A DNA stretch of 64,000 bases from Eledone cirrhosa (taxonomy: Eukaryota). This document shows, piece after piece, positions 769-61,835 of this stretch. Numbering within the stretch: position 1 is the stretch's first letter; each line of letters begins with the position of its first letter. The notes under the pieces are model-generated. The model was not told the origin of the DNA. It saw only the letters and a list, made by a program, of their open reading frames with translations, and made no database searches. The stretch lies in contig OZ024743.1 of the NCBI GenBank assembly GCA_964016885.1, forward strand, positions 298,964,001 through 299,028,000, given 5' to 3'. The position numbers were made by a program, and so were the translations under genes.

Positions 769-1006
769 GTTGTCTTGTTTGATCGATGGTTGATGTGACC
801 GTTAGTGTTGAGGTATGACTGAAGTCGGAAAAACGATTTCCCCAATTCATTGGTATATTTAACACATGTAAAACTCTTTTGGTTACTCACTTGAATGTTT
901 CATTGTCCGGTGTATCCCCTCCATTCGGTTTGTTAACTTTTCCTCTTTTTTTTCCCTCTTTCCTTTTTCGTATTTCTTCCTCTCTCACTATTTTTTCTTT
1001 TCTTTC

Positions 1007-1120
1007 GCTCATGGCCTTTTGATCGATAAAAGGCCTTGGGCGTACTGCTGATCGCTTTCGATGTCCTGTCTTAAGCGCCGAAACATCTATGATGAGCAGT
1101 TAACAGCTGATGAAGGGGTT
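1007..1120 (+). ncRNA. Candidate non-circularly permuted, pseudoknotted hammerhead ribozyme (copy A)
   Basis: GATGTC 1060-1065 (GUC triplet) pairs with GAAACATC 1080-1087 (helix III); CTGT 1066-1069 pairs with ACAG 1103-1106 directly before CTGATGA 1107-1113 (helix I); extra helices GGCGT/GCGCC, ACTGCT/AGCAGT and hairpin GGCCTTTT/AAAAGGCC. Confidence 0.6.
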
Positions 1121-3310: not shown

Positions 3311-6300
3311 AGTATATGTTGGTTGTATACCAACACCTCAGTATGCAGATTGGAGCACTCGACGAAGTGCGCAGGTTGGTTTGGTTACTCCGGAGTAATA
3401 TAAAATAAACTAAAATAAATAAGTCAAATATTTAAAATTTGGCTTCGTTTATTACTGCTATATATATTTCGGTGACAACAATATTTGGCTGTGACCTCTT
3501 CAGGCAGTTCGAATTAGTGTGGTAGAGACGAGTACACGTGTTGTTGAGGTGTTTGACTTTGTCAATACTCTGATATGCCCCGTTCCTTGTTGGGTTGTTA
3601 TTTCACTGAGGAACTGTAATCATATGAATTTCAACAAACGAATTTCGGCGTCAGAGGACATCCTCTCCTCCCATTGGTCAGTTGTGAGAACATTCCTTAG
3701 TCGAAAGTCTATAGAATTCGTCTGAGGCGAGGCAATCTGTAGTGGTTGTTCTTGTTATTGTTAAGTACATCTGATCTCTACTCTTATGTTGGTAGTGGTC
3801 TGGTGTTGTAGTCAGCTAAAAAAAATGATAAAATGATAAAAATGATAAAATGGTAAGAGAATAAAATAAGATAATAAAATAAAATAAGATAATCAAATAA
3901 AATGTTGTGTGTTATAACCAATCTCAAAGGTAGAAAAATTTGTAAGATCTACGCCTTCCATTGGTCAGCTGTGAGAGCATTCCTCAGTCAACAGACTATA
4001 GACATTCTTTCTGGGGTGAGGCTATCTTTAGTGTTTGTTTTTGCTATTGTTAAGTACATTTAGCCCTACCCTTCTTTTGCTAGTGGTGTTGGTGCTGCGG
4101 TCAGCCTAGGTCTTGCTGCTGATGATTTTAGAAGTATCTGTGTGTGGTTGCATCCATCCTGCCACCATTTCTCGTGGTGGTGGTGGTGGTTGGGGGGTGG
4201 GGGGTTGTGTCATGCATATGAATAAATAAAAGGCAATAAAATGAAGAAAATAGAAAATAAATGAAAAGTAAGAAAATAAAGATTCAAATGAATTAAAATA
4301 AAATGTGTGTGTGTTATAACCAATCTCAAAGTTATAAAGATGTGCTGCGGTCAGCCTAGGTCTTGCTGGTGCTGATTTTAGAAGTATCTGTGTGTGGTTG
4401 CATCCATCGTGCCACCATTTATCGTGGTGGTGGTGGTGGGGTGGGGGTGGGGTATAAAGATGTTGGCCAAATTAGAAAGGCTGTGTCAAAATCAATCTCT
4501 AGGCTATCATGGTGTCTGCTCAGCCTGGATGGGTCCCTATGGCTTGAGGGGGAGTTCCCATCCTATGATGTTGTTACTGCCCATATAGCTTGAGGGAGGT
4601 CCGGCCAAGAGGTGTCTACATGTTCTGGAGAAGTCCCTATAGCTTGAGGGGAGTTCACATCTCAGTGTGTTGTTACTGTCCATATAGCTTGAGGAAGGTC
4701 CCGGCCCTGAGGTGTCTACATGTCCCGAAGAAGTCAGTTCTGAGGTTTATCAGGCGGCTTCCACCTCTTAGTATCTCGAGCGTCTCGCTCAGACATAGTT
4801 TGCATATGCCAGATCCCCCTTTATCGGATGGTACTTTCATGATTATGGACCAGGCCAGAGAGTACGGGATCCTGTCCAGCTTAAGCTTCCAGATCAGGTC
4901 GGAAAGAGCCATACTTTTCCTTTTGACCTCCTTATTTAAGGAATGGCGATGATTAAACCAACGGTCTTTAAAGCACGTTGATGTGGCTCCTATGTAGATG
5001 TGTTCTTCCTAAGGTATTCATTACTAAGGGGGCATGATTCGGGGTTTCTGCAGTTGCAGAGGGTGGTCGACTTCTGCGTGCCTAGTGTGAGGTTCCCGTT
5101 ACGTGTTACATGGTGTCTTCCCCCGGGCCCGGTGGGGGGTCCCCGGGTCTGTTTGAGTTTCTTTGGTGGGCACTGGGTCCACCCTTCTCTCCTTCCACAT
5201 GGTTCTGCCGGGTGCTTATATTGCCATCTTCTGGTTGCGTGTGGTTTTTAAGCCTACTCCTGTTGATGCTAGCTATGTGTTGGGCCAGATTTCTCGCGGT
5301 GGAATACGAGAGCTTCACAGTGTGTCTGTTGAAGATCTTGTGGTATTTATGGTCCCTCGGGAAGCATTTATCAAGTGCTTCAAAGAATGATCGGGCCAAG
5401 TTGTTCTTTAGGGCCGCTGAGTAGGGTGGGTTGTACCACGTAATTTTTCTGCGTCTACTCATATATGGGTGGGTTGAGGGCGTCGTGAGTTGTTGGAGAG
5501 TTGCTGGGTTGCTGGTGGTTCCTGCATTGTTGCTTCCCCTTTGGGCGCTATGGGTGTTGCTATCTTCTCGGCCCGAATATGTGGGGTGGTTGTTGCCCGC
5601 GCTGGGAGATCCACGGTGGGGTGGTCCTCTGTTACCCCTCCTCTTGTCCTGCGGTTGGGGTCGTCGGACCCGGGGTGGTTAGTATCACCCCTGAGACTGC
5701 TACTCGTATTGGGTTTCAAACCATGGTTAAGCGTACTCGTCACCATCGCCCGTGTGGTGGTTGTCGGGCTCATGGTGCTTATTTGTTTCTGTTCTGCCTG
5801 TATTGTTAGGGTTCGCCCCTTCCCAGACAACGCGGGTGGGGGTGTCCGTAGGGCCATCCCCATCCCGGCGCCTCGGATTATATGTTATATTTTGGCCATG
5901 TGCTGCCTTATTTAGAGCAGTGTTGTCATATTCCGCGTTGCTATCGAAGATTTCCTTATTTGCGGACAGGCTGGAGATCCTGTCGGAGACACTCTTCACC
6001 ACGGCCTTGGTTATGGATCTAGGGTGGTTTGATTTGGTGTTAATATACACAAGAATCTCGTTGGGCTTCTGGTAGGAGTAGTATTGCTCGGTGTTCAGGT
6101 TTAGGGTGCTGTCTAGGAAGCTAACTACCTTTCTATTTGGGTCTAGTTCGATACTGAGCCCCTGGTTCTTAAAGAAATGGCGAATACACCTCTTCATTTT
6201 CTCCCTCATAATGGTGCTGTGGTCATATACTGTGAAGAGAGCAATATAATCCGCCGCCCAGGCAGGGGATTTCATCTTGATTTACCCTGGATGAGATCAA

Positions 6301-6921: not shown

Positions 6922-8530
6922 GGGGTGTGGGGGAGGGGGAGAGGGAGATCAACGGTGTGGGGAGTGGAGGGAGTGTAGTGTACTGGTGTGTGTGCGTGTT
7001 TGGATGAGTGTGTGTGTGGTGAAGGGGTGTTAGTATACTGGTGGTGGGGAAAGAGTTGAATGCGGGTGTGTTAGTGGGGGTCAGTGGTGGTAGGGTGTGT
7101 AGAGTGCGTTGTGTAAGTGGGTGTGGGTGGGTGTGTGTTGGTGGGGTCAGGGGATGTTAGTGGTATTAGTTGTGGGGTGGTTGGAGTGGATGTGTGGGTG
7201 AGGGTTAGTGGTGGTAGTAGGGTGTATGGATAGTGTGTGTATATATGTACAGCTGGGTATGTGCGTGATAGGCGGAGGGTGGGGATGTTAGTATTGTTAG
7301 TTGGGGGAGGGTGGCCGGGTGGGTGGAGGTGGGCGGTGAAAAGGAGGAGTGTGTTAGTGGTGTTAGTGGGGGATATGTGTGTGTTGGGGGGGGGGGGGGC
7401 AGGGCGGTCGAATGCTAAAAGAATATGGGTGGGGAGTTAAGGCCGGGTAGGAGTGTGGGTCTGTAGGGTGAAGATGGTGCATTGTTCGACCGTGAGGCTG
7501 GTGGCTGGTGTTCCGTGGCATTGGAGTAGGCCACAGACTGTGACGTGGTGAGCGGAATGTCCAGGAGAGCCAAAGTGGCGGGTGATGGGGGAACTCCTGC
7601 CGAGACGAATATCCCGGAGGTGTTCAGTGAAACGGTCCGCCAGGCGACGTCCAGTCTGTCCGACGTATGTTGCGCTGCACTCCATGCATCGAAGACGATA
7701 GACTAGGTTCGAGGAGGTGCAGCTGAAGGCGTGCCGGACAGAGAGAGAGTGGCCGTTGGGACCCTGATAGGTGGTGGTGTTGGTGATGTGGGGGAAGGTT
7801 TTGCAACGAGGCCTGGAACAGGGAAGGGAACCGGGGGGGCGTGGGGGGTGTAGGGAGCTGTGGACGAGGAGGGTGCGGAGATTGCGTGCGCGTTTGAAGG
7901 AGGGGAGGGTGGGGATGGGAAGATGTGGGAGGTGGAGGCGTCGCACTGGAAGCGGAGGAAGAGGCGGAGGATGGTGGGGTGGAGGATTAGGGGGTTGGGG
8001 TTGGTGATGGGGAAGGGGAGACGGTGAGGGGTGTGGGTGGGGGGTAGGGGATGAGGTTGGTGGAGCGGTGGACAGCACGAGAGCGAGTGAGTGAGGGCGA
8101 TGTGGACGAGGGGGGGGGGGGTAAACCTCTGCGGATGAAAAGGCTGACTAGGGAAAGGGCCTGGGACTCAAAGTCAGCATCTCGGCTGCAGAGGCGGCGG
8201 ATCCTGAGGAGTTGGGAGTAGGGAATAGAGTGTTTAATGTGGGTAGGGTGGGAGGAGGTGACGTCGAGGTAGGAGTGGGAGTCGGTGAGTTTGAAGAAGG
8301 CGGAGGTAACGAGGGAATGGTGGGAGGGGTCGATGGCGACGTAGATGTCTAAGAAGTGGACGTGGGTGGTGGAGATAGAGGTGGGGAAGTGGAGGGAGGG
8401 GTGGAAGGAGCAGAAGAAGGAGAGAAAGGAGTCGAGTTCTTCTCGGGTGAGGGTCGTGGCTCCGATACAGTCGTCGATGTAACGACCGTACAGTTCGGGC
8501 GTGGGGCCGGTGTACCGGGCAAAGATTTGA
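6510..8530 (-). mobile_element. Second Penelope-like retroelement fragment (Neptune-like), frameshifted
   Basis: ORF 7987-8640 LYGRYIDDCIG RT motif, HFLDI, SSHPTHIKHSIPYSQLLRIRRLCS; ORF 7437-8078 CSRPRCKT, FSCTSSNLVYRLRC..C..YVGQTGRRLADRFTEH (GIY-YIG); C/A-rich 3' region. Confidence 0.9.
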
Positions 8531-8899
8531 GCTATAAATATATATATATATATAAATGTGTGTGTGTATATACATGAATATATTGATATAAGCATCCAAA
8601 CACACATAGATACATTTATATATATATCCGATGTATGCATATATAGTTACGTACATACACACACAACATCCCTATACTAATAAACTGTATTCAGTAAAAA
8701 GTGAAAGAATTTCGATAAAATGTGCCTGCAGCTTAATTCCTCTTACGTCTATAAATGTCAAATATTAAATTAAATTTAAATTTATATTGTAGTGTACTAA
8801 TCAAATATAGAGCAGCACTTGTAATAAATTGATTTATGTTGTTTTGCGGTGTGTCCTACGTAATTTCGGCATGAGACTTGACGGTGTATTAATTGGGAC

Positions 8900-18753: not shown

Positions 18754-18828
<75 letters not shown>

Positions 18829-18862
18829 AATAAAAATGAAGGATTAGAAATAGAAGCCAGGA

Positions 18863-18968
18863 CTATCCATCATCAGTGGTCTACTAGCCATCATAGGTAT
18901 TTCTTCGCATTAAAGACCAGATACCTCAGGCTAGCGCGAACAATAACTAAAGTAAGTTATTGGGATAA
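18863..18968 (-). ncRNA. Candidate non-circularly permuted hammerhead ribozyme (copy B, most complete)
   Basis: Minus strand: TTATCC-CAATAACT..AGTTATTG-TTCGCG-CTAGCC-tga-GGTATC^TGGTCT-ttaa-TGCGAA-GAAATACC-tatgat-GGCTAG-t-AGACCA-CTGATGA-t-GGATAG; each capitalised stem block has a complementary partner. Confidence 0.65.
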
Positions 18969-19202
18969 AAAGAATTGTGTGGAGAAAGAGAGACAGGTAA
19001 GCAAACACGAATGGTGACGCAACGTAATGAGAGGAAAATTCTTACTTTTCGCACGATTAAGATGTGTCTTTCGTCTTCTCGTCAATATTCGCAAGTTCTT
19101 ATGTTCAAATGAATCATTGACTTGATTTTATCATTTTTTCTCTCTTTACGTTGCGTCACCATTCGTGTTTGTTTACCTCTCTCTCTTTCTCCACCAAATT
19201 CT

Positions 19203-19284
19203 TTTTATCCCAATAACTCAGGTATCTGGTCTTTAATGCGAAGAAATACCTATGATGGCTAGTAGACCACTGATGATGGATAAA
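19203..19284 (+). ncRNA. Inverted, internally deleted duplicate of permuted HHR copy B
   Basis: GGTATC 19221-19226, TGGTCT, GAAATACC 19243-19250, AGACCA, CTGATGA 19270-19276 retained; upstream TTCGCG-CTAGCC strands deleted. Confidence 0.5.
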
Positions 19285-19341
19285 CCTGGCTTCATTTTTA
19301 TTTGTATATCATATTTGCAACAACACAGCACGCCATGTTTC

Positions 19342-19377
<36 letters not shown>

Positions 19378-19387
19378 GTTATGGCTA

Positions 19388-19429
19388 AATAGTGAGTCTT
19401 GTTACTCTGGAGTAACAAGACTCACTATT
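19388..19429. repeat. Perfect 20-bp-arm palindrome made from the 3' half of the HHR family at 23829-23878
   Basis: aatagtgagtcttgttactc-tg-gagtaacaagactcactatt; the arm matches gagtaacaagactcact at 23868-23884. Confidence 0.9.
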
Positions 19430-23765: not shown

Positions 23766-23828
23766 TTCTTCCTCCATCCGAAGTCTTCCTTATATATATA
23801 TACCGTGGTCTGCTACCGAAACGTTAGT

Positions 23829-23878
23829 TCTTGTCTGATGATCCTCTGATAAACAGGCGAAACTCCAGAGTAACAAGA
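23829..23878 (+). ncRNA. Minimal type I hammerhead ribozyme
   Basis: TCTTGT-CTGATGA-t-CCT..AGG-c-GAAA-CTCCAGAG-TA^ACAAGA; perfect 6-bp helix I, GUA triplet, near-palindromic helix III. Confidence 0.88.
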
Positions 23879-25707: not shown

Positions 25708-26915
25708 GCGCGCTCTTCCAATTCCTTTGGAAGAAACGGGCTCCTTTGGTGAGAAGATCCATCTGCTGCCAACACCCTTCAAACAGAGGGCTGGGGATGT
25801 CGAGGCTGACGATGCGCAAACACGCGCTCCGGCTGCGGCACCTCCACGTATTCCTCACCAGAAAACCGGTGTGGGCCCCGTTCGTGAGGCGAGCCTTTCC
25901 ACGACTCGTCTAACTGATCGAGCTGTAGACCTGGGTCAAGCAAAGACCGAGGAAAATGGGCTACTGGGATATAGAATGTGCTCAGGCGCTCACATTCCTC
26001 TGGCAAACGGACCCGGCGCTCAGTGGAGACTCCATTTCGACATTCTATAGAGGGTTGGTCCGCAGCAAGTGCGACGACACGCTCGGAGAAACTCTGGGCG
26101 TAGAGGAGGACGAACTGGCCAGTCTCTTCGGTAGGACATTCCGCCCGGGACCAATAGACAACTTCCAAAAGTCCCTGGCATGGCAGTGCTACCGAGGAGC
26201 TCTATCAGTTCGAGACAAGCTCTACAGATACGGGCGCCCGGGTAGGGACCCTTCGAAAAAGATCTGTCCGAGATGCGTGCGCGACGCGGAAACCGTCGCA
26301 CACGCATTTGTACACTGCCCGGGCGTTACCGACCTGTGGGGCTATGTAGAACGACTATTGTCGTGGGTGGGACCAATCCAGTTGACCACCGAGTCCATTG
26401 TCATGATCAAACCGCCACCCTCCTTCAAAAACGAGGGAGAGGCGGTTTTCCTATGTGTTATGGCTATGGTGAAAGAGGTTATAAGGTGTACGAGGTTAAA
26501 AGATCTGAGGTCAGACACCTTTCTCTCCGGCGAGCAACTGATTCGTTTTTACAAATATCATTTTGGAAGAAGAATCAGGATGGAGAGAGAGGTGCTGTAC
26601 TCCAGCAAATTTTATAAAAGGTGGGTGAATGTGGCAAAGATGGCCCGAGTCGTTGTGCCTTCTCTCTATATAAGCCTGTAGGTTGAGGAAAAAGAGGAAG
26701 AGAGGAAGGGAGTACTCATTCTTGGTGCTCCTGGAGATGAGGGTTGTACATTTTTGCGGGGTGTGTACAACCTCTGTGTAACACCTCCCCCCCTATTGGG
26801 GATTTCAATTGTTATTTGTTATTGTATTAATAGTTTTACTTTCATATACCTAGATGTAAACTCCCCCTTTGTATTTGTCCCCTTCTTTTGTGCCCCTGTG
26901 GCTAATAAAGAAATA
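25707..26915 (+). mobile_element. L1/Tx1-like LINE 3' fragment inserted in (TATC)n
   Basis: ORF 25956-26681 with zf-RVT-like LAWQCYRGALSVRDKL and CCHC knuckle CPRC..ETVAHAFVHC; 3' UTR with AATAAA; (TATC)n at 25612-25706 and TATC/TACC repeats from 26916. Confidence 0.85.
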
Positions 26916-28066: not shown

Positions 28067-28071
<5 letters not shown>

Positions 28072-28265
28072 AACGAGTAGGACCATGATGGCTGAGCTCA
28101 AGCCGTTTCGACGGCTAATTCTGACTCCAGTCCAGAATTAGCCGTCGAAACGGCTTGAGCTCAGTCGGCGGGGTCCTACTCGTTCCTATTACCCACTCTA
28201 CTACCCTAAGTATTGAGTACTTTGGTGCGTTATGGTCCATCTGGTTCCTTACCACATTTCCTTCG

Positions 28266-28268
<3 letters not shown>
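28067..28268 (+). mobile_element. PLE terminal-repeat fragment with 5' fold-back (palindrome 28067-28189), between (TA)n
   Basis: Same family as 45209-45410, 31189-31247 and the end of the PLE at about 34010-34055; contains the HHR 3' half GTC-GAAA-CGGC-ttgagctca. Confidence 0.7.
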
Positions 28269-30699: not shown

Positions 30700-31151
30700 T
30701 ATATATATATAAAACAGTACAGAGAAGTACGGAATACATCGGCATCGGGATGGTGTCTGCATTTTGTGCTTATAAAAAAAAATTCGTCGTAGATTACCAG
30801 GGTTTTTTTCCGTGCGAAGAAAATAAATACTTTATCGTGAAATAAATATTTTTGTTTATATTTTGTTATTGTGTATGCAAAAATGCTATATATTTACCCT
30901 TATCGAGCCTCGTGAAATAAATACGTTTGTTTATATTTTGTTATTGTGTATGCAAAAATATCTGTACACGAATATATAATTATATTTGTTTACTGTCCCT
31001 CTTTCTCCACCCAATTCGCTCTGTCGCAATAACTTATTTTAGTTATTGCTCGCACTGATTTTGAGGTATCTGGTCTTTAATGCGAATAAATACCGATGAT
31101 AGTCAGAAGATTACTGATGATGGACAGTCCCGTTTCTCATTCTATTTTTCA

Positions 31152-31192
<41 letters not shown>

Positions 31193-31243
31193 AGAATTAG
31201 CCGTCGAAACGGCTTGAGCTCAGCCGTCGTGGTCTTACTTGTT

Positions 31244-31332
<89 letters not shown>

Positions 31333-39659: not shown

Positions 39660-40443
39660 TATGTATACGTACATACATATATGTATACAGACGTACAGTA
39701 GTATGTATATATATATATACACATATATCCACACACATATATATATACGTATGGATTCACCGCACATTTATTAAAATGCTCGGTGTGTTTGTAAACAAAC
39801 ATCCCGAATTAAGCCGTACAGTGTCTAGCAACCATTGTTGCTCATTTGTTCAACACTGACAAAGGAACGCTGTACTAGTTTCAAGCTTATTAGCTATCGT
39901 CAGCAAGGTATACCTTCCTGCCAGATGGTTGAACGTCTGAAAGTATATACTTTCCTTATGCATATTAACGGCTGAGCAGCCTAATTTGCATATCGAGTTA
40001 GTTAATCGGCCGGGGTACCGAAAACGATAAACGGAAAAAATGAAACGAAATTTCATTTCTCACTCTTAGTACGGCTGTTACTTAAATATAAGTATGTATA
40101 CGTACATACATATATGTATACAGACATATATGTATACAGACATATATGTATACAGACATATATGTATACAGACATATATGTATACAGACGTACAGTATAA
40201 TGTATATATATATATACATACATGCACACATATATATATGTATGTATGGATTCACCGAACATTTATTATAATGTTGGGTGTGTTTGTAAACAAACATCCC
40301 GAATTAAGCCGTACAGTGTCTAGCAATCATCGTTGCTCATTTGTTCAACACTGACAAAGGAACGCTGTACTAGTTTACAAACACACCGAGCATTATAATA
40401 AATTTTCGGTGAATCCATACGTATATATATATATGTGTGCATG

Positions 40444-40849: not shown

Positions 40850-42052
<1,203 letters not shown>

Positions 42053-42128
42053 TTATTAAAATAACAGATTAAAGTTTAAGCAAAGAATCGGGCCCTCTTT
42101 GGATTTTAGTCTTCAAATTTATTATTAT

Positions 42129-43030: not shown

Positions 43031-43559
43031 CAATAAATTCCATTCGTTGCATCACTGATTCTCTTTTTTTTTCTGTGATTTCATACTCTGCTCTAGGAGA
43101 GCATCGGGTGCTCAAACGGCCTACCGCAAACGGACGCTTTAAGCATCCAACACCAATTATATATATATATACAACACGTAGACACGCAAATACATATATA
43201 TGTACATACGTAACAACAAGTACAACCCCCATATATATATATATATATATATAAATTGAAACAAAATGAAAACGAAATTTCATTTCTCACTCTTAGTATG
43301 GCACTTACTTAAATGTAAGTATGCATGTATACGTACATACATATATGTATACAGACGTACAGTAGCATGCACACATATATATATATATACATATATACAT
43401 ACATATGCATACAGGTACACATACATATATGCACGTATCAGTTTAGCGGCGCTTATTATAACGTCGCTTTGTTCGTTTGTAAACAAACTGAACAGCCTGA
43501 ATTTATGCCATACGGTGTTAAGGCAACCACGTCACCTTTTTGTTCAACACTGACACAGG

Positions 43560-43604
43560 AACGATGTACTAGTTTCAAGCTTGTTAGCTATCATCAGCAC
43601 CGTT
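43560..43604 (-). ncRNA. Minimal type I HHR, unit 1
   Basis: Minus strand: AACGGTG-CTGATGA-t-AGCT-aaca-AGCT-t-GAAA-CTAG-TA^CATCGTT; 7-bp helix I, palindromic helix III. Confidence 0.9.
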
Positions 43605-44031
43605 TACCCATCTGCCAGATAATTGAACGTTCGAAAGTATATACTTTCCTTATGAAAATTAACGGCTGAGCAGCCTAATTTGCATATTGAGTGAGTTAAA
43701 TCGGTCAGGCATACCGAAAACGATAAATTGAAACAAAATGAAAACGAAATTTCATTTCTCACTCTTAGTATGGCACTTACTTAAATGTAAGTATGCATGT
43801 ATACGTACATACATATATGTATACAGACGTACAGTAGCATGCACATATATATATATATATACATATATACATACATATGCATACAGGTACACATACATAT
43901 ATGCACGTATCAGTTTAGCGGCGCTTATTATAACGTCGCTTTGTTCGTTTGTAAACAAACTGAACAGCCTGAATTTATGCCATACGGTGTTAAGGCAACC
44001 ACGTCACCTTTTTGTTCAACACTGACACAGG

Positions 44032-44076
44032 AACGATGTACTAGTTTCAAGCTTGTTAGCTATCATCAGCACCGTT
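44032..44076 (-). ncRNA. Minimal type I HHR, unit 2
   Basis: Identical to the unit 1 motif. Confidence 0.9.
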
Positions 44077-44492
44077 TACCCATCTGCCAGATAGTTGGAC
44101 GTTCGAAAGTATATACTTTCCTTATGAAAATTAACGGCTGAGCAGCCTAATTTGCATATTGAGTGAGTTAAATCGGTCAGGCATACCGAAAACGATAAAT
44201 TGAAACGAAATTTCATTTCTCACTCTTAGTATGGCACTTACTTAAATGTAAGTATGCATGTATACGTACATACATATATGTATACAGACGTACAGTAGCA
44301 TGCACACATATATATATATATACATATATACATACATATGCATACAGGTACACATACATATATGCACGTATCAGTTTAGCGGCGCTTATTATAACGTCGC
44401 TTTGTTCGTTTGTAAACAAACTGAACAGCCTGAATTTATGCCATACGGTGTTAAGGCAACCACGTCACCTTTTTGTTCAACACTGACACAGG

Positions 44493-44537
44493 AACGATGT
44501 ACTAGTTTCAAGCTTGTTAGCTATCATCAGCACCGTT
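44493..44537 (-). ncRNA. Minimal type I HHR, unit 3
   Basis: Identical to the unit 1 motif. Confidence 0.9.
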
Positions 44538-44829
44538 TACCCATCTGCCAGATAGTTGAACGTTCGAAAGTATATAATTTCCTTATGAAAATTAACGGCT
44601 GAGCAGCCTAATTTGCATATTTGCACATTTAAGTAAGTGCCATACACATTTAAGTAAGTGCCATACTAAGAGTGAGAAATGAAATTTCGTTTTCATTTTG
44701 TTTCAATTTATCGTTTTCGGTATGCCTGACCGATTTAACTCACTCAATATGCAAATTAGGCTGCTCAGCCGTTAATTTTCATAAGGAAAGTATATACTTT
44801 CGAACGTTCAACTATCTGGCAGATGGGTA

Positions 44830-44874
44830 AACGGTACTGATGATAGCTAACAAGCTTGAAACTAGTACATCGTT
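44830..44874 (+). ncRNA. Minimal type I HHR, inverted unit
   Basis: AACGGTA-CTGATGA..GAAA-CTAG-TA^CATCGTT; G to A change breaks the core-proximal helix I pair. Confidence 0.8.
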
Positions 44875-45208
44875 CCTGTGTCAGTGTTGAACAAAAAGGT
44901 GACGTGGTTGCCTTAACACCGTATGGCATAAATTCAGGCTGTTCAGTTTGTTTACAAACGAACAAAGCGACGTTATAATAAGCGCCGCTAAACTGATACG
45001 TGCATATATGTATGTGTACCTGTATGCATATGTATGTATATATGTATATATATATATATATGTGCATGCTACTGTACGTCTGTATACATATATGTATGTA
45101 CGTATACATGCATACTTATATATATATATACTTATATATATATATCATTCACACACACGCACGCACATATATACCCCACCATATATATATATATATAGAG
45201 AGAGAGAG

Positions 45209-45410
45209 AGGAAAATGTTTGACCCCGACGGCAGAGCTCAAGCCGTTTTGACGGCTATTTCTGGACGTCTGGAGTCCAGAAATAGCCGTCGAAACGGCTT
45301 GAGCACTGCCGTCGGGGTCAAACATTTTCCTATTACCCACTCTACAAACCTAAGTATTGAGTAATCTGGTGCGTTATGATCCATCTGGTTCCTTACCATC
45401 CCTCCTTCGT
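45209..45410 (+). mobile_element. PLE terminal-repeat fragment with 5' fold-back (palindrome 45209-45331)
   Basis: Homologous to 28067-28268; GAAA-CGGC-ttgagcact-GCCG-TC^ggggtc is an HHR 3' half. Confidence 0.7.
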
Positions 45411-56009: not shown

Positions 56010-58245
56010 TTATCTCTTTCTTTTAATTTCGAGTATATTTTTGACCGGCCACATTCCTGGTGGCAAGGTTGTAAAAGAAAAGAAATTGTCATCCCTTGAA
56101 TCACAAGAATGTTTTGCAAATGTTGATGGTGCCAGCTATCGCAGCCATTTGTAGACTATGAATTAGGGAGCTGCGCTCTTTGTCCGCAAATCCAAGTTCA
56201 GTTATACATTGGTCCAAGCGGGTTGGTATATAACCCGTAGCTCCAATAATAATGGGTATGAAGCTAAAGGTGTATCTTGGATACTGGATTTGTAAACTCA
56301 TCATCAATGGTCCGTAGATGTCCTCCTTCTCCTGTATTTTTCTGACAACGTTTACATCAAGTAGGCAGCTGATCTCCTCAACAGAACACGTTTTCAATGT
56401 GTGGTCCCAAACAACAATATCAGGCCGGTTGTGCTTTAATTTGGTGGCAGCTTTTATTTTCAGGTTCCACCAGTATTCCTTAGTGCCATCTGTCTCAATA
56501 TAATCTTCCTCGTTTGTTTTTAATTTTGTTTTCCGAAGTGAGTTCCATATGGTTCTAGCTATCCCATCGTTTCTCACGGGGAGGTAGTAGCGAGATGACA
56601 TTCTTTCGCAGCTGGCAACAATGTGGCTTACATCTTCGATCTTTGTTTTACATAGCCTGCATTTATTGTCAGCTGATGGCCCTCCTCTTTTGTGAAGCAG
56701 ATATTTGGTAGGGAATTCTTGTTCCTGTATTGCATAGAGATATCCCTCAATGTGTGATGACATAAACTTGTCGGAACTCTATGCCAGGCTTTTTGAGTGG
56801 TTTATCCCCTCTATGGTCTGTGTTTTACGTCTCAAGTATCCGTGCATAACCTTTTCTGTAAATTGGTCAATTTTTTCATCTTGTTTGAACATTGAATAGG
56901 ATCTTCCGATTTCTCTGGGTGAGAGATTTATATCAGGCTTTATTCCATATCTCTTCTCCAGATCAGTGGCTATCCTAATGATATTTTTTTCTTCATGCTT
57001 ATAAACCTGGGCAAGGTGGTTGCCAACCTTTTTCCTATGTTGAAGATGTTGCTTCAGTGTTACTATCCGGGCCTTATATGATGTTAATATGGATTTTAGA
57101 CCCCGACCAACTTCTTTGCGTGAGAAGTATAGCCTATTCACATCACCATTGATGTTAAAGTTCCCAGTAACACTGAGAAGTTTGCGAGTTCTAACATCCA
57201 TCTCACTTTGTTCTTGCAATGACCAGTTCAGCAGGCCAAATGTTGGCGTTATAATTGGCACAACATAAGTATTGTGGGCAATGTATTTGTTGTACGCTGA
57301 CAGTTCTGATGATCACATTTTCTTTACTCTTCTGAGGTATTCAGTTCTGGTTCTCTCCTAATTCATGGGTCCATCATATCTGATATTCTAATCCTGTCCA
57401 ATATATCTGTAGTTGTCACCTGACTGTAGAGGTTGTATTGTCAGGCCGTTCATCTCTAGATTTCTAGAGGAGGGTACAGCTCTTCCACGTTTTACTGCCA
57501 AATATGCACACTTGGACTCACCAAATTTCTCTCCCTCTTTCACCACACCTCCTTCTTTCCACCAGCTTGCTCAGTTGTTATAATGTTGTTGGTAGCACAG
57601 TGATCCTGTAAGAACAGGTAAAGACACCCAGTATATAATTTATATATGATCTTTTGGCAGGCTATTGGGCGGTAATTTTTAGCAAGGGTGGTTTGGCTAT
57701 TTTTGGAAATGAGGATTGTAGTGGCAGTTGATAACCATCTGGGCAGTTCTTGCGTGCCTTTAATGGTTTCTGTAAACAGCCGTATGAGATCTTGCCGATA
57801 GAAAGTGAAATTCTTTAACCAGTATCCTGTTATGAGGTCTGGGCCTGGTGATTTCCTATTCGACATTTTCTGTAGAGCTGTTTCCAGTATTGACCCATCT
57901 ATGTAATATTGTTTTGTCTGGACATGTTGGCAGTAGTCCTGTTCCAGTTCTTTTAGCCATTTAGTTTGTCTGTTGAATCCGCCATCCGTTTCCCATACAT
58001 ATCTCCAGTAGCTCTCAACCTGTTCTTTTGAAGGGGTGTCATTTACAGAGATTGAGCTATTGCCACCGAAGCTGTATAAACTGATTTAGTATCTGTGGGG
58101 AACAATCTATTTAGCACTTGTCGTTTATGTGCTGTTGACTTATATTTTAGTCTTTCTGTTGTAGCTGTGAATTGTTGTTTCAACTGGTGTAATTTGTAGT
58201 TTAAAGTTTTAAATTTTGTATCTCCAAATCATCTCTCTAATTTTT
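56010..58245 (-). mobile_element. R4/Dong-like non-LTR retrotransposon (RT, CCHC, restriction-like endonuclease), 5'-truncated with RT core deleted
   Basis: KSPGPDLITGYWLK..NYRPIAC..IYKL; RLYFSRKEVGRGL; AIQEQ..CRLC..EDVSHIVASC; RPDIVV..EISC; (TATG)n at both ends. Confidence 0.9.
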
Positions 58246-58330
58246 GTTTGTATGTATGTATGTATGTATGTATGTATGTATGTATGTATGTATGTATGTA
58301 TGTATGTATGTATGTATGTATGTATGTATG

Positions 58331-60308
58331 TCAGGTCACCAGTTGGTGCTACTGGTAACATGTATCCCAGTACAACCTGTCTCATGGTCGGGTCGTTGGC
58401 GACTAAACTGGCAACCCCACCAAGATTTCTTGGTGAGGAGGGTGACTTTGGACATCCTGCAGGACTAAAAACAAAACCTGTCAAAGGGCAAAGGAGCTCT
58501 TAAGAGTCAATGGCCATCCAAAATCACCGGGAGAGATGACCCCTTAGCCTTTGTCAAGGCAGAATTCTAGGAGAAGGAAAACTCTGATATAACACCTGCA
58601 ACCCTGATGGTATCCAATGATGTTGACTTGTTCTTCTTTTTGGTAAATATCATCTTGGTTAAGAGAGTGGGACTGGCTTTGTGCAGTGCCTTTGCTCACT
58701 ATAAAAGCTTCACGGCACAGGCATTGCTTTATATCTGGAGATCTCTCTGCACTTCTCCTCACATGGTACCATGGGCCCAGCACTATGTGTCAATAATTGT
58801 CACAAGTGTAGTGTTTGTACCAGAGTTTTCAAGTCGCTGGCTGGACTAAAAAGTCACACTCGTTCAGCGCTTCGGTAGGGGTTCTCTTACATGGATATAA
58901 AGTAGTGGCCGTACTCGAAAACGAGTTGGCAGCCACCATGTATGTATGTATGTATGTATGTATGTATGTATGTATGTATGTATGTATGTATGGTAACATG
59001 TATCCCAGTACAACCTGTCTCATGGTCGGGTTGTTGGCGACTAAACTGTCAACCCCACCAAGGTTTCTTGGTGAGGATGGTGACTTTGGACATCCTGCAG
59101 GACTAAAAACAAAACCTGTCAAAGGGCAAAGGAGCTCTTAAGAGTCAATGGCCATCCAAAATTACCGGGAGAGATGACCCCTTAGCCTTTGTCAAGGCAG
59201 AATTCTAGGAGAAGGAAAACTCTGATATAGCACCTGCAACCCTGATGGTATCCAATGATGTTGACTTGTTCTTCTTTTTGGTAAATATCATCTTGATTAA
59301 GAGAGTGGGACTGACTTTGTGCAGTGCCTTTGCTCACTATAAAAGCTTCACGGCACAGGCATTGCTTTATATCTGGAGATCTCTCTGCACTTGTCGTCAC
59401 AGGGTACAATGGGCCCAGCACTATGTGTCAGTATTTGTCACAAGTGTAGTGTTTGTACCAGAGTTTTCAAGTCGCTGGCTGGACTAAAAAGTCACACTCG
59501 TTCAGCGCTTCGGTAGGGGTTCTCCTACATGAATATAAAGTAGTGGCCGTACTCGAAAACGAGTTGGCAGCCACCATGTATGTATGTATGTATGTATGTA
59601 TGTATGTATGTATGTATGTATGTATGTATGTATGTATGTATGTATGTATGTATGGTAACATGTATCCCAGTACAACCTGTCTCATGGTCGGGTTGTTGGC
59701 GACTAAACTGTCAACCCCACCAAGGTTTCTTGGTGAGGATGGTGACTTTGCACATCCTGCAGGACTAAAAACAAAACCTGTCAAAGGGCAAAGGAGCTCT
59801 TAAGAGTCAATGGCCATCCAAAATTACCGGGAGAGATGACCCCTTAGCCTTTGTCAAGGCAGAATTCTAGGAGAAGGAAAACTCTGATATAGCACCTGCA
59901 ACCCTGATGGTATCCAATGATGTTGACTTGTTCTTCTTTTTGGTAAATATCATCTTGATTAAGAGAGTGGGACTGGCTTTGTGCAGTGCCTTTGCTCACT
60001 ATAAAAGCTTCACGGCACAGGCATTGCTTTATATCTGGAGATCTCTCTGCACTTGTCATCACAGGGTACAATGGGCCCAGCACTATGTGTCAGTATTTGT
60101 CACAAGTGTAGTGTTTGTACCAGAGTTTTCAAGTCGCTGGCTGGACTAAAAAGTCACACTCGTTCAGCGCATCAGTAGGGGTTCTCCTACATGGATATAA
60201 AGTAGTGGCCGTACTCGAAAACGAGTTGGCAGACACCATGTATGTATGTATGTATGTATGTATGTATGTATGTATGTATGTATGTATGTATGTATGTATG
60301 TATGTATA
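58331..60308 (+). mobile_element. Three tandem copies of an about 600-bp non-autonomous RTE-related retroposon, each ending in (TATG)n
   Basis: Equivalent positions 58353, 58991, 59653 (periods 638 and 662); contains TCTAGGAGAAGGAAAACTCTGA, which I recognise from RTE 5' UTRs; diverged relative at 63030-63365. Confidence 0.75.
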
Positions 60309-60309
60309 T

Positions 60310-61835
60310 ATGTTCTTTTGATTTTATAATTTCACAAAGTTTTACCAATAGAGAGAGAGTCGGTTTCTAACATAGACACAAGACTCTCTCATTTGAATTT
60401 ACACACCATCAAATAGGTAGATATGTATGTATGCATGTGTAGATATGGATGTTATTGTATGTGTGGATGTGTATGTTTTGAGTTGTATGTGTGCATGTGT
60501 ATATGCTTTGTATCTGTACATGTATATATGCAGTTATTAGATGCAAAATGTTTGGAATGTTTTACATATTTTTACTGTTCCATTAATGGATTGTACTTGT
60601 AATTTCCTAACTAGTTGTGTTCTTTCTGTTCCTGTGAAGCCTAGCTTCTCAAGATTTGTATTGAGGCAGTTACTAACATATCCCAGTGCCCCAATAATCA
60701 CAGGCATAAATCTGAAGGTGTAATCAGGGTGGAGTATCTGCAGATTTCCTATCAGTTCTGCATAAATATTCTCCTTTTCACTAATCTTTGATATTATATT
60801 GGCATCTGCTGGGCAGCTAATTTCCTCTACTGTGCATGTTTTCTTCTCCCTGTCCCATATCATAATATCTGGTCTGTTATGCCTGCATTTTATTGGGGTT
60901 TTTACTGGAACATTCCACCAGTACTCTTTCATATTATGTACATGGATGTCATCCACATTGTTGTAGCTTTTAATGTGTTTATTAACGGGGCAATCTTTTT
61001 TACGAACTGCATTGTACAGTGTTTTGGCCACTACATCATGCCTCATAGATAGATAGTACCACAATGACATCTTTGGACAGCTGCTGATGACATGTCTGAT
61101 ATCCTCGATATTAGTTCTGCAGAGTCTGCACTTGTTATCAAATCTAGGTGTTTTGCCTGCATCCCTATCTCTTTTGTGAATCAGGTATTTCGTGCTAATC
61201 TCCTGTTACTGGATTGCAAAAGCTTATCCTTCAAATTGGGAGCGAATATAGCGGTTGTTGGTCCAGGATAGACTACTTTCCTTATCTATATTACTCTCAC
61301 TCTGGAGCTTCCTGGCAACATATCCATGCATGATATTTTGCTGATAAGCATGCAGTTTTTCATTCATGGTTTCACTGCGATACTACTGAGCGACTTCCCT
61401 GGGTGTGAGTTTTTGATTATCACACAGGAAATATCTCTCGAGGAGTTCCTTCCCAACTCTCATGATCTTATCTGTTTCATGCAGATAGACTTGCTCGAGA
61501 AACGGGCTCCTATGCTTCGAGGTTCGTAGATGTTGTCGGACAGATATGATGCGACATTCAAATGTTGCCTGGACTGATGTTAGGCCTCTGCCTCCCTGCT
61601 TACGTTTCAAGTAAAGGCGGTCTATGTCACTGTTGATGTGGAAGTTTCCGGTGTTGTTCAGTATTTTTCGAGTTCCAACATCAACTGCTCGGATTTCGTC
61701 TCTCGTCCAATTGAGTATTCCAAACGTTGGTGTTAGGACAGGCACAGCAAACACATTGTGAGCCACTGTTTTGTTTTGCGCAGAGAATTCCGATCACCAG
61801 ATTTTTCTTAATCGGGTATAGTATTCCCTGGTTAT
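60310..61835 (-). mobile_element. Second, divergent R4/Dong-like LINE 3' fragment
   Basis: AVPVLTPTFG..DRLYLKRKQGGRGL; CRLC..EDIRHVISSC; RHDVVA; RPDIMI..EISCP; TATG repeats at both ends. Confidence 0.9.

Follow-up and report, generated by a model that had tools for sequence, protein, structure and literature searches.

The minus strand of a 64,000-nt stretch of Eledone cirrhosa contig OZ024743.1 (hereafter the window, with positions counted from its first letter) carries at 18864..18967 a complete hammerhead ribozyme motif, copy B, which is recognizable by its sequence, by a structure descriptor, and by covariation. The motif is a real and new form of the hammerhead, the new part being that stem II is split at its base. 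In the scheme of Eckert et al. (2023, PMC10085705), the ribozyme consists of three blocks, S, G, and C, each assumed to be uninterrupted, which gives six possible orders. Copy B follows the order S-G-C, and it is quite probable, judging from sequence, that this hammerhead core obtains its stem II and pseudoknot strand from upstream by way of a closing helix (P0) and a hairpin, that it likely cuts after the AUC triplet (18920), and that it likely serves a non-coding repeat for Naiad-type enzymes.

Read 5' to 3' (18967-18864), copy B contains a full hammerhead core, with CUGAUGA, GAAA, and the NUH triplet AUC. It opens with the 5' strand of P0, TATCC (18967-18963), followed by an 8-bp junction hairpin (18941..18962) in which CAATAACT (18962-18955) pairs with AGTTATTG (18948-18941). 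After a single T (18940) comes the displaced strand (18929..18939), consisting of the stem II partner TCGCG (18939-18935) and of CTAGCC (18934-18929), the strand for the stem I-stem II interaction that forms the pseudoknot. Both thus lie 5' of the cleavage block and are held by P0 and the hairpin. The trinucleotide TGA (18928-18926) leads into block S (18914..18925), which comprises the helix III strand and triplet (GGTA-T, 18925-18921, and C17, 18920) and the helix I strand TGGTCT (18919-18914). A TTAA linker connects the helix I strand to block G (18896..18909), made up of the stem II strand TGCGA (18909-18905), A11.1 (18904), GAAA (18903-18900), and the helix III partner TACC (18899-18896). 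TAT-GA-T (18895-18890) then precedes the segment 18869..18889, in which the pseudoknot partner GGCTAG (18889-18884) is followed by block C, namely the helix I partner AGACCA (18882-18877), CTGATGA (18876-18870), and T10.1 (18869), before GGATA (18868-18864) completes P0. CUGAUGA and GAAA are linked directly by one pair at most. The first-pass annotation had placed a full set of helices in copies A, B, and C of the window and a cut between 18920 and 18919 of copy B; re-reading of the sequence recovered every helix and the same position after AUC. Its further statement that the strands do not follow types I, II, and III also holds, as those types share the circular order C-G-S.

The six helices covary across repeat families. 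Two alignments were examined, one of 24 distinct rows from nine families (the top copies by identity to the family majority, together with copies B and C of the window and two family H copies, but without family A because MAFFT misaligned it), and one of 25 rows in which P0 and the hairpin were included (11 earlier copies and 14 of 20 further loci). In the former, 88.9% of 552 cells were paired versus 67.9% after shuffling and 30-48% in slid controls, with changes on both sides in 18 of 23 pairs; in the latter, 95.1% of 900 cells were paired versus 85.8% after shuffling and 28-47% in slid controls, with both-side changes in 17 of 36 pairs. Helices I and III, which flank the cleavage site with U16.1-A15.1, reached 95.8% and 93.3% in the 24 rows, with both-side changes in 6/6 and 4/5 pairs, respectively. 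P0 showed 87.5% and 89.6% paired cells in the two alignments and a switch between A-U and G-C, the junction hairpin 97.5% with four of eight pairs changed on both sides (25 rows), and the upstream stem II 75% (24 rows) and 88.8% (25 rows). The pseudoknot helix, which abuts both stem I and stem II, was paired in 89.6% and 98% of cells in the 24 and 25 rows, and five of its six pairs covary in the latter. Family A, aligned separately (35 copies), keeps the six helices with other letters (pairing of 4/4, 10/11, 5/5, 8/9, 5/5, and 5/5), while in family N all four copies retain helices I and II and the pseudoknot, and two of the four retain helix III. Core letters are identical in 9 of 10 family strings, the exception being family C with TAAA, and families G and B are only 51% alike over 77 nt. 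The assignment to the minus strand follows from the core letters and from the paired columns, which contain 28 G-U cells versus 16 A-C cells. The higher conservation of the core relative to other positions within families was set aside as evidence because the loci had been chosen by core patterns.

The wiring of stem II sets the motif apart from published permutations. A standard SGC stem II, built from the strand after CUGAUGA(U), is paired in 44.4% and 25.7% of cells in two registers, and it is the upstream strand, together with a 10.1-11.1 pair, that places a stem II next to GAAA. This pair, joining the base after CUGAUGA with the base before GAAA, is found in 22 of 24 and 23 of 25 rows and occurs as U-A, A-U, C-G, and U-G in the 24-row alignment. 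P0, the hairpin, and stem II converge on the base of stem II and may form a four-way junction, although the hairpin is optional, being absent or reduced in families F and G. The single 10.1-11.1 pair likely forms the base of the junction in B-type families, whereas in family A, which lacks that pair, the junction lies directly on the core; stem II itself would presumably stack on the core beside GAAA. The earlier proposals that six helices covary and that a multi-strand junction replaces helix II are thereby upheld, the latter by covariation of the upstream stem II, but the replacement is incomplete, since one direct pair remains in most families. The topology is likewise new in part: the three-block order had already been published as SGC, and what is novel is that stem II is split where it meets the core. 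In a survey of mostly open-access literature, no paper with this layout, no non-circular hammerhead in an animal genome, and no kink-turn in a natural hammerhead was found. PMC13725137, PMC10162972, and PMC3088659 describe variants and small core insertions, but these differ from the layout here.

Helix III and the pseudoknot helix are joined in 9 of 10 family strings by a kink-turn signature, which families A and N lack. In copy B, it is formed by TGA (18928-18926) and TAT-GA-T (18895-18890), within 18890..18928 on the minus strand. The join comprises a 3-nt bulge, then G-A and A-G pairs between flanking helices, with a paired helix next in most family strings. Position 3b-3n is U-U and -1b:-1n is C:G, each in seven of the nine families with the motif; kink-turns with C:G at the latter position need nothing but metal ions to fold, whereas box C/D kink-turns require L7Ae (PMC5689011). 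The letters suggest a kink-turn fold. In PMC10085705, the join between helix III and the pseudoknot is described as not obviously compatible with the crystal structure, and a kink at this point would supply the bend. According to the proposed mechanism, P0, the hairpin, and stem II would converge at the A9-G12 face of the core, either in immediate contact or with a single base pair in between, and the kink-turn would bend helix III back so that the pseudoknot helix clamps the far ends of stems I and II. P0 would be where the element body joins the ribozyme, giving it a fourth point of entry in addition to stems I, II, and III. Copy B is predicted to be self-cleaving, and its most likely function is to cut tandem transcripts into unit-length RNA as a template for a Penelope-like enzyme acting in trans. 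Both ends of this RNA would lie within one fold, joinable into a circle as in retrozymes.

The motif is abundant in the genome and scarce in controls. Twenty locally shuffled windows gave no match to the structure descriptor, which in the window itself detected copies A and B, matched the partial copy B2 for the core only, and missed copy C, which has TAAA for GAAA. A core-plus-kink-turn pattern had 12,270 exact matches in the 3.0-Gb genome versus 13 for the reversed pattern. Among pattern-matched viral loci, 96 of 100 failed the descriptor, as did 119 of 120 metagenome loci among the matches listed; the four viral passes and the one metagenome pass (again among the matches listed) had minimal helices or lay off the pattern site and were judged to be chance. 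Other patterns were less productive. One for an Octopus-Naiad-like member gave no match in this genome. A purine-at-15.2 pattern gave 45 matches versus 10 in its control, mostly mutated members of known families, and biased the family E and H strings toward AACC in helix III. A loose pattern gave 1,168 matches versus 223 in its control, largely chance or other repeats, and led to family N (L461-L465). That family has the same layout with wholly different helices and no kink-turn, and its closing helix is long and, by eye, (CA)/(TG)-rich. The 150 of 306 Rfam matches listed include no hammerhead family and only microsatellite-driven, microRNA-type matches.

At least 11 motif families were distinguished (A, B, B', C, D, E, F, G, H, I, and N). 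The motif terminates non-coding units of ~510-630 bp that occur in tandem, inverted, and flanked by microsatellites. Tandem units are spaced 514-631 bp apart, sequence common to the copies extends ~600-700 bp upstream and then ends, and an inverted arm is present at many loci. The 3' ends fall into two classes ~40 nt apart and adjoin microsatellites. In raw counts without a background control, the first microsatellite after CUGAUGA lies at 34-49 nt in 24/48 and at 77-91 nt in 16/48 copies of family B, at 32-42 nt in 8/33 and at 70-89 nt in 22/33 of family A, and at 16 nt in 5/19 and at 55-64 nt in 10/19 of family D. Tandem, inverted, microsatellite-ended copies are listed as marks of Penelope-like insertion in PMC8557442 (Craig 2021), and the 5'-truncated copies in tandem and in inverted orientation, the microsatellite targets, and the optional 30-40 bp tail agree with insertion of the Naiad type. 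The Penelope-like setting named in the first-pass annotation is therefore supported by tandem spacing, inverted arms, and two 3' end classes, but its description of the units as terminal repeats requires correction, as at all loci examined they are short and non-coding and do not form the termini of a coding element. With 94-95% mean identity, families B and D are young, and L195:1-3059 is an array of at least six family I units of 514 bp each. Three contig-only runs from one sample cover the unit, with contigs that carry no end, strand, or level information and weigh in neither direction.

The same layout can be read in published Naiad ends. In PMC8557442, Naiads are reported without a canonical hammerhead and carry only "HHR_core" and "HHR_half_core" labels, those of Octopus and Euprymna among them. 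The ends were read by eye around CUGAnGA matches in part of the 54 consensus sequences of File S5 of that paper. At least eight show the same full layout: Naiad_Aacu, Naiad_Anas, Naiad_Obim, and Naiad_Ovul, along with two from Morbakka, one from Clytia, and one from Darwinula, the last four placed by file position. One Morbakka end has P0 AGAGG/CCTCT, stem II GGCCCC/GGGGCC, a 9-bp pseudoknot, and a junction without any unpaired base. The two Octopus ends (Naiad_Obim and Naiad_Ovul) agree with family B in the letters of the hairpin loop and of the kink-turn, and the Naiad_Esco end has the layout with a weak stem II as its one departure. Another six ends, from nematodes (Naiad-1, -2, and -3_Nbra and three placed by file position), can be parsed as type CSG with long pseudoknot helices. 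No motif was found in the File S5 passages of the Naiad_Omin and Naiad_Adux ends, while a spider end and two Darwinula ends could not be parsed and were not used. SGC, CSG, and the split form can be converted into each other by circular permutation, and a single rearranged ancestor that was reopened at different points may therefore underlie both the split form and the CSG form of nematodes. The motif is likely the ribozyme reported missing from Naiads. On balance, the evidence leans toward a broader reading in which cnidarian, arthropod, nematode, and cephalopod Naiads have working non-circular hammerheads, including a seventh wiring opened after CUGAUGA with a fourth arm, in which a cephalopod kink-turn positions the stem I-stem II clamp and which drives the retrozyme-like family of more than 12,000 copies here.

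Several observations weigh against this interpretation of the split hammerhead. Nested folding favours the plus strand (z -3.87 vs -2.42), and a measure of further pair types does not rise above shuffles (417/500 and 212/500); moreover, the alignment rows are related, and the shuffle counts are therefore not probabilities. Stem II is the weakest helix, with 75% in the 24 rows, a value lowered in part by a one-column register shift in family F. The 10.1-11.1 pair is missing in 2 of 25 rows, in locus L460, and in family A, and family N allows a weak standard stem II in three of four copies, with five of six pairs, two wobbles, and a mismatch adjoining the core. No Naiad open reading frame (ORF) lies upstream at any of 33 loci (20 + 13, with 3.5-5 kb fetched and no protein search of the genome made), and cephalopod Naiads are described as long-inactive remnants in PMC8557442, at odds with the youth of families B and D. 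As for activity, eight of nine frog retrozymes did not cut (bioRxiv 10.64898/2026.07.22.740005), and a Penelope hammerhead from an anole required its protein for cutting, while insertion in vitro did not depend on this ribozyme (PMC11167929); in light of both results, a protein-dependent or non-cutting role is possible.

Such a role is the substance of one alternative, in which the fold is real but is not an enzyme by itself, serving instead as a docking site for the reverse transcriptase or cutting only when a protein of the 15.5K/L7Ae kind binds the kink-turn. Besides the anole result, the U-U at 3b-3n and the L7Ae requirement of box C/D kink-turns speak for it. It is nevertheless unlikely, as catalytic letters and the NUH triplet are retained across families 50% alike, the -1b:-1n C:G is of the metal-ion-folding type, and families A and N do without a kink-turn. 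A plain type SGC ribozyme with a one-pair stem II, for which P0, the hairpin, and the upstream strand would be dispensable, appears improbable. The widespread 10.1-11.1 pair with its four pair types, the precedent of a natural hammerhead with a one-pair stem II (PMC3088659), and the missing or shrunken hairpin of families G and F would suit such a ribozyme, but the upstream stem II and the pseudoknot covary in the aligned families, and family A forms no direct pair, an upstream G pairing with C11.1 in its place, as it also does in Naiad ends of Octopus, Morbakka (one of two), Acropora, Clytia, and Darwinula. It is very unlikely that the repeats, their ribozyme being real, are copied by another Penelope-like clade after an ancient acquisition of the motif from a Naiad. 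Elements with a C-terminal GIY-YIG domain are common in the genome, with fragments near several loci, and this possibility would also accord with the lack of a Naiad ORF in cis at the 33 loci and the remnant state of cephalopod Naiads; yet these fragments lie in inverted orientation or are truncated at microsatellites (L138 and L140), and the hammerheads of C-terminal GIY-YIG clades are of the canonical type I (PMC8557442 File S2). Palindromes and inverted arms abound in the window, as they would if the helices were products of chance or of fold-back duplication in a repeat-rich genome, but this idea has next to no probability left, given the clean shuffled windows, the viral and metagenome loci that fail the descriptor, and crossing helices that a simple fold-back cannot create, and it is refuted by the covariation counts, with compensatory changes in six helices.

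The split hammerhead has further copies in the window. Copy A (1006..1117, plus strand) belongs to a divergent family with a GUC triplet and no kink-turn, and its P0 has decayed. Copy C (31021..31127, plus) represents a related family and is likely inactive because TAAA replaces GAAA, which is retained in its relatives L455-L457. Copy B is part of an insertion made of two back-to-back arms, both terminating at (TA)n: the 3' part of a 575-bp family B repeat unit (18814..19038, minus), 95% identical to the natural tandem copy L003, and an inverted arm with a 3' tail (19041..19351, plus) that contains the partial copy B2 (19207-19282, plus). The 28 nt deleted from B2 correspond to the 3' half of the hairpin, the stem II strand, and the pseudoknot strand. 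A related palindrome at 19388-19429 adjoins this insertion and is kin to a type I hammerhead-like motif at 23828-23875 (plus) with canonical order, a 6-bp helix I, and a GUA triplet. A unit of 460-470 bp, in three direct copies and one inverted copy (43310-45124 and ~39800-40005), has in each copy a minimal type I hammerhead-like core with a palindromic stem III (CUGAUGA at 43597, 44069, and 44530, minus, and 44837, plus; CUGACGA at 39903, minus) and resembles a conventional retrozyme. Fold-back arms at (TA)n mark a further short repeat, which occupies 28067-28266, 31189-31248, and 45221-45410 and also adjoins the motif in L029 and L087. Broken Penelope-like ORFs lie at 5106-6281 and 7437-8646 (minus), the latter with a weak C-terminal GIY-YIG match, and broken non-LTR (long terminal repeat) retrotransposon ORFs at 25779-26681, 40933-42068, and 56101-61793, with two weak zf-RVT scores.

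The layout breaks the stated limit of six permutations for hammerheads and brings the non-circular forms from anonymous metatranscriptomes to animal genomes at very high copy number. Naiads were reported to be hammerhead-free, yet their core and half-core labels can be parsed as the split form or type CSG, and the kink-turn suggests how helix III could be linked to the stem I-stem II clamp, the sole join that Eckert et al. could not fit to the crystal structure. Since current ribozyme searches miss this layout, the number of self-cleaving RNAs in invertebrates is likely underestimated.

Among known systems, type SGC (HRIMA-1 and its variants, PMC10085705) has the order S, G, C in common with copy B, and both have a short linker from stem I to stem II, a helix that connects these two stems at their far sides, and often a U after CUGAUGA. 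However, in type SGC, stem II and the interaction strand lie directly 3' of CUGAUGA, whereas here they have moved upstream, held by P0 and the hairpin, and the published descriptors demand a G after CUGAUGA(U) and a C before GAAA. A unit-length RNA of the present kind amounts to an SGC ribozyme that carries the element body as an insert behind A9, with P0 closing it off. SGC and CSG examples cleave in vitro, and the examples in that paper have no known host organism, save for one weak GCS candidate; type SGC is known there from metatranscriptomes only, in contrast to the motif here, which resides in an animal genome in more than 12,000 copies. Type CSG belongs to the same non-circular class but has an intact block C and ends open elsewhere, with two published sequences only, both from metagenomes. 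Standard and box C/D kink-turns (PMC5689011) resemble the motif in the 3-nt bulge, the tandem G-A/A-G pairs, the flanking helices, and the U-U at 3b-3n, but the signature here, known from sequence, lies inside a ribozyme. Naiads (PMC8557442) likewise have (TA)n targets, tandem and inverted copies, and an optional 30-40 bp tail, but the units here carry no Naiad ORF. Finally, non-LTR retrozymes (bioRxiv 10.64898/2026.07.22.740005), which stem from Penelope-like terminal repeats, consist of tandem non-coding units with one hammerhead each, as observed here, but they are defined by a type I hammerhead per unit, which these units do not have, and type I models would miss the layout described here.
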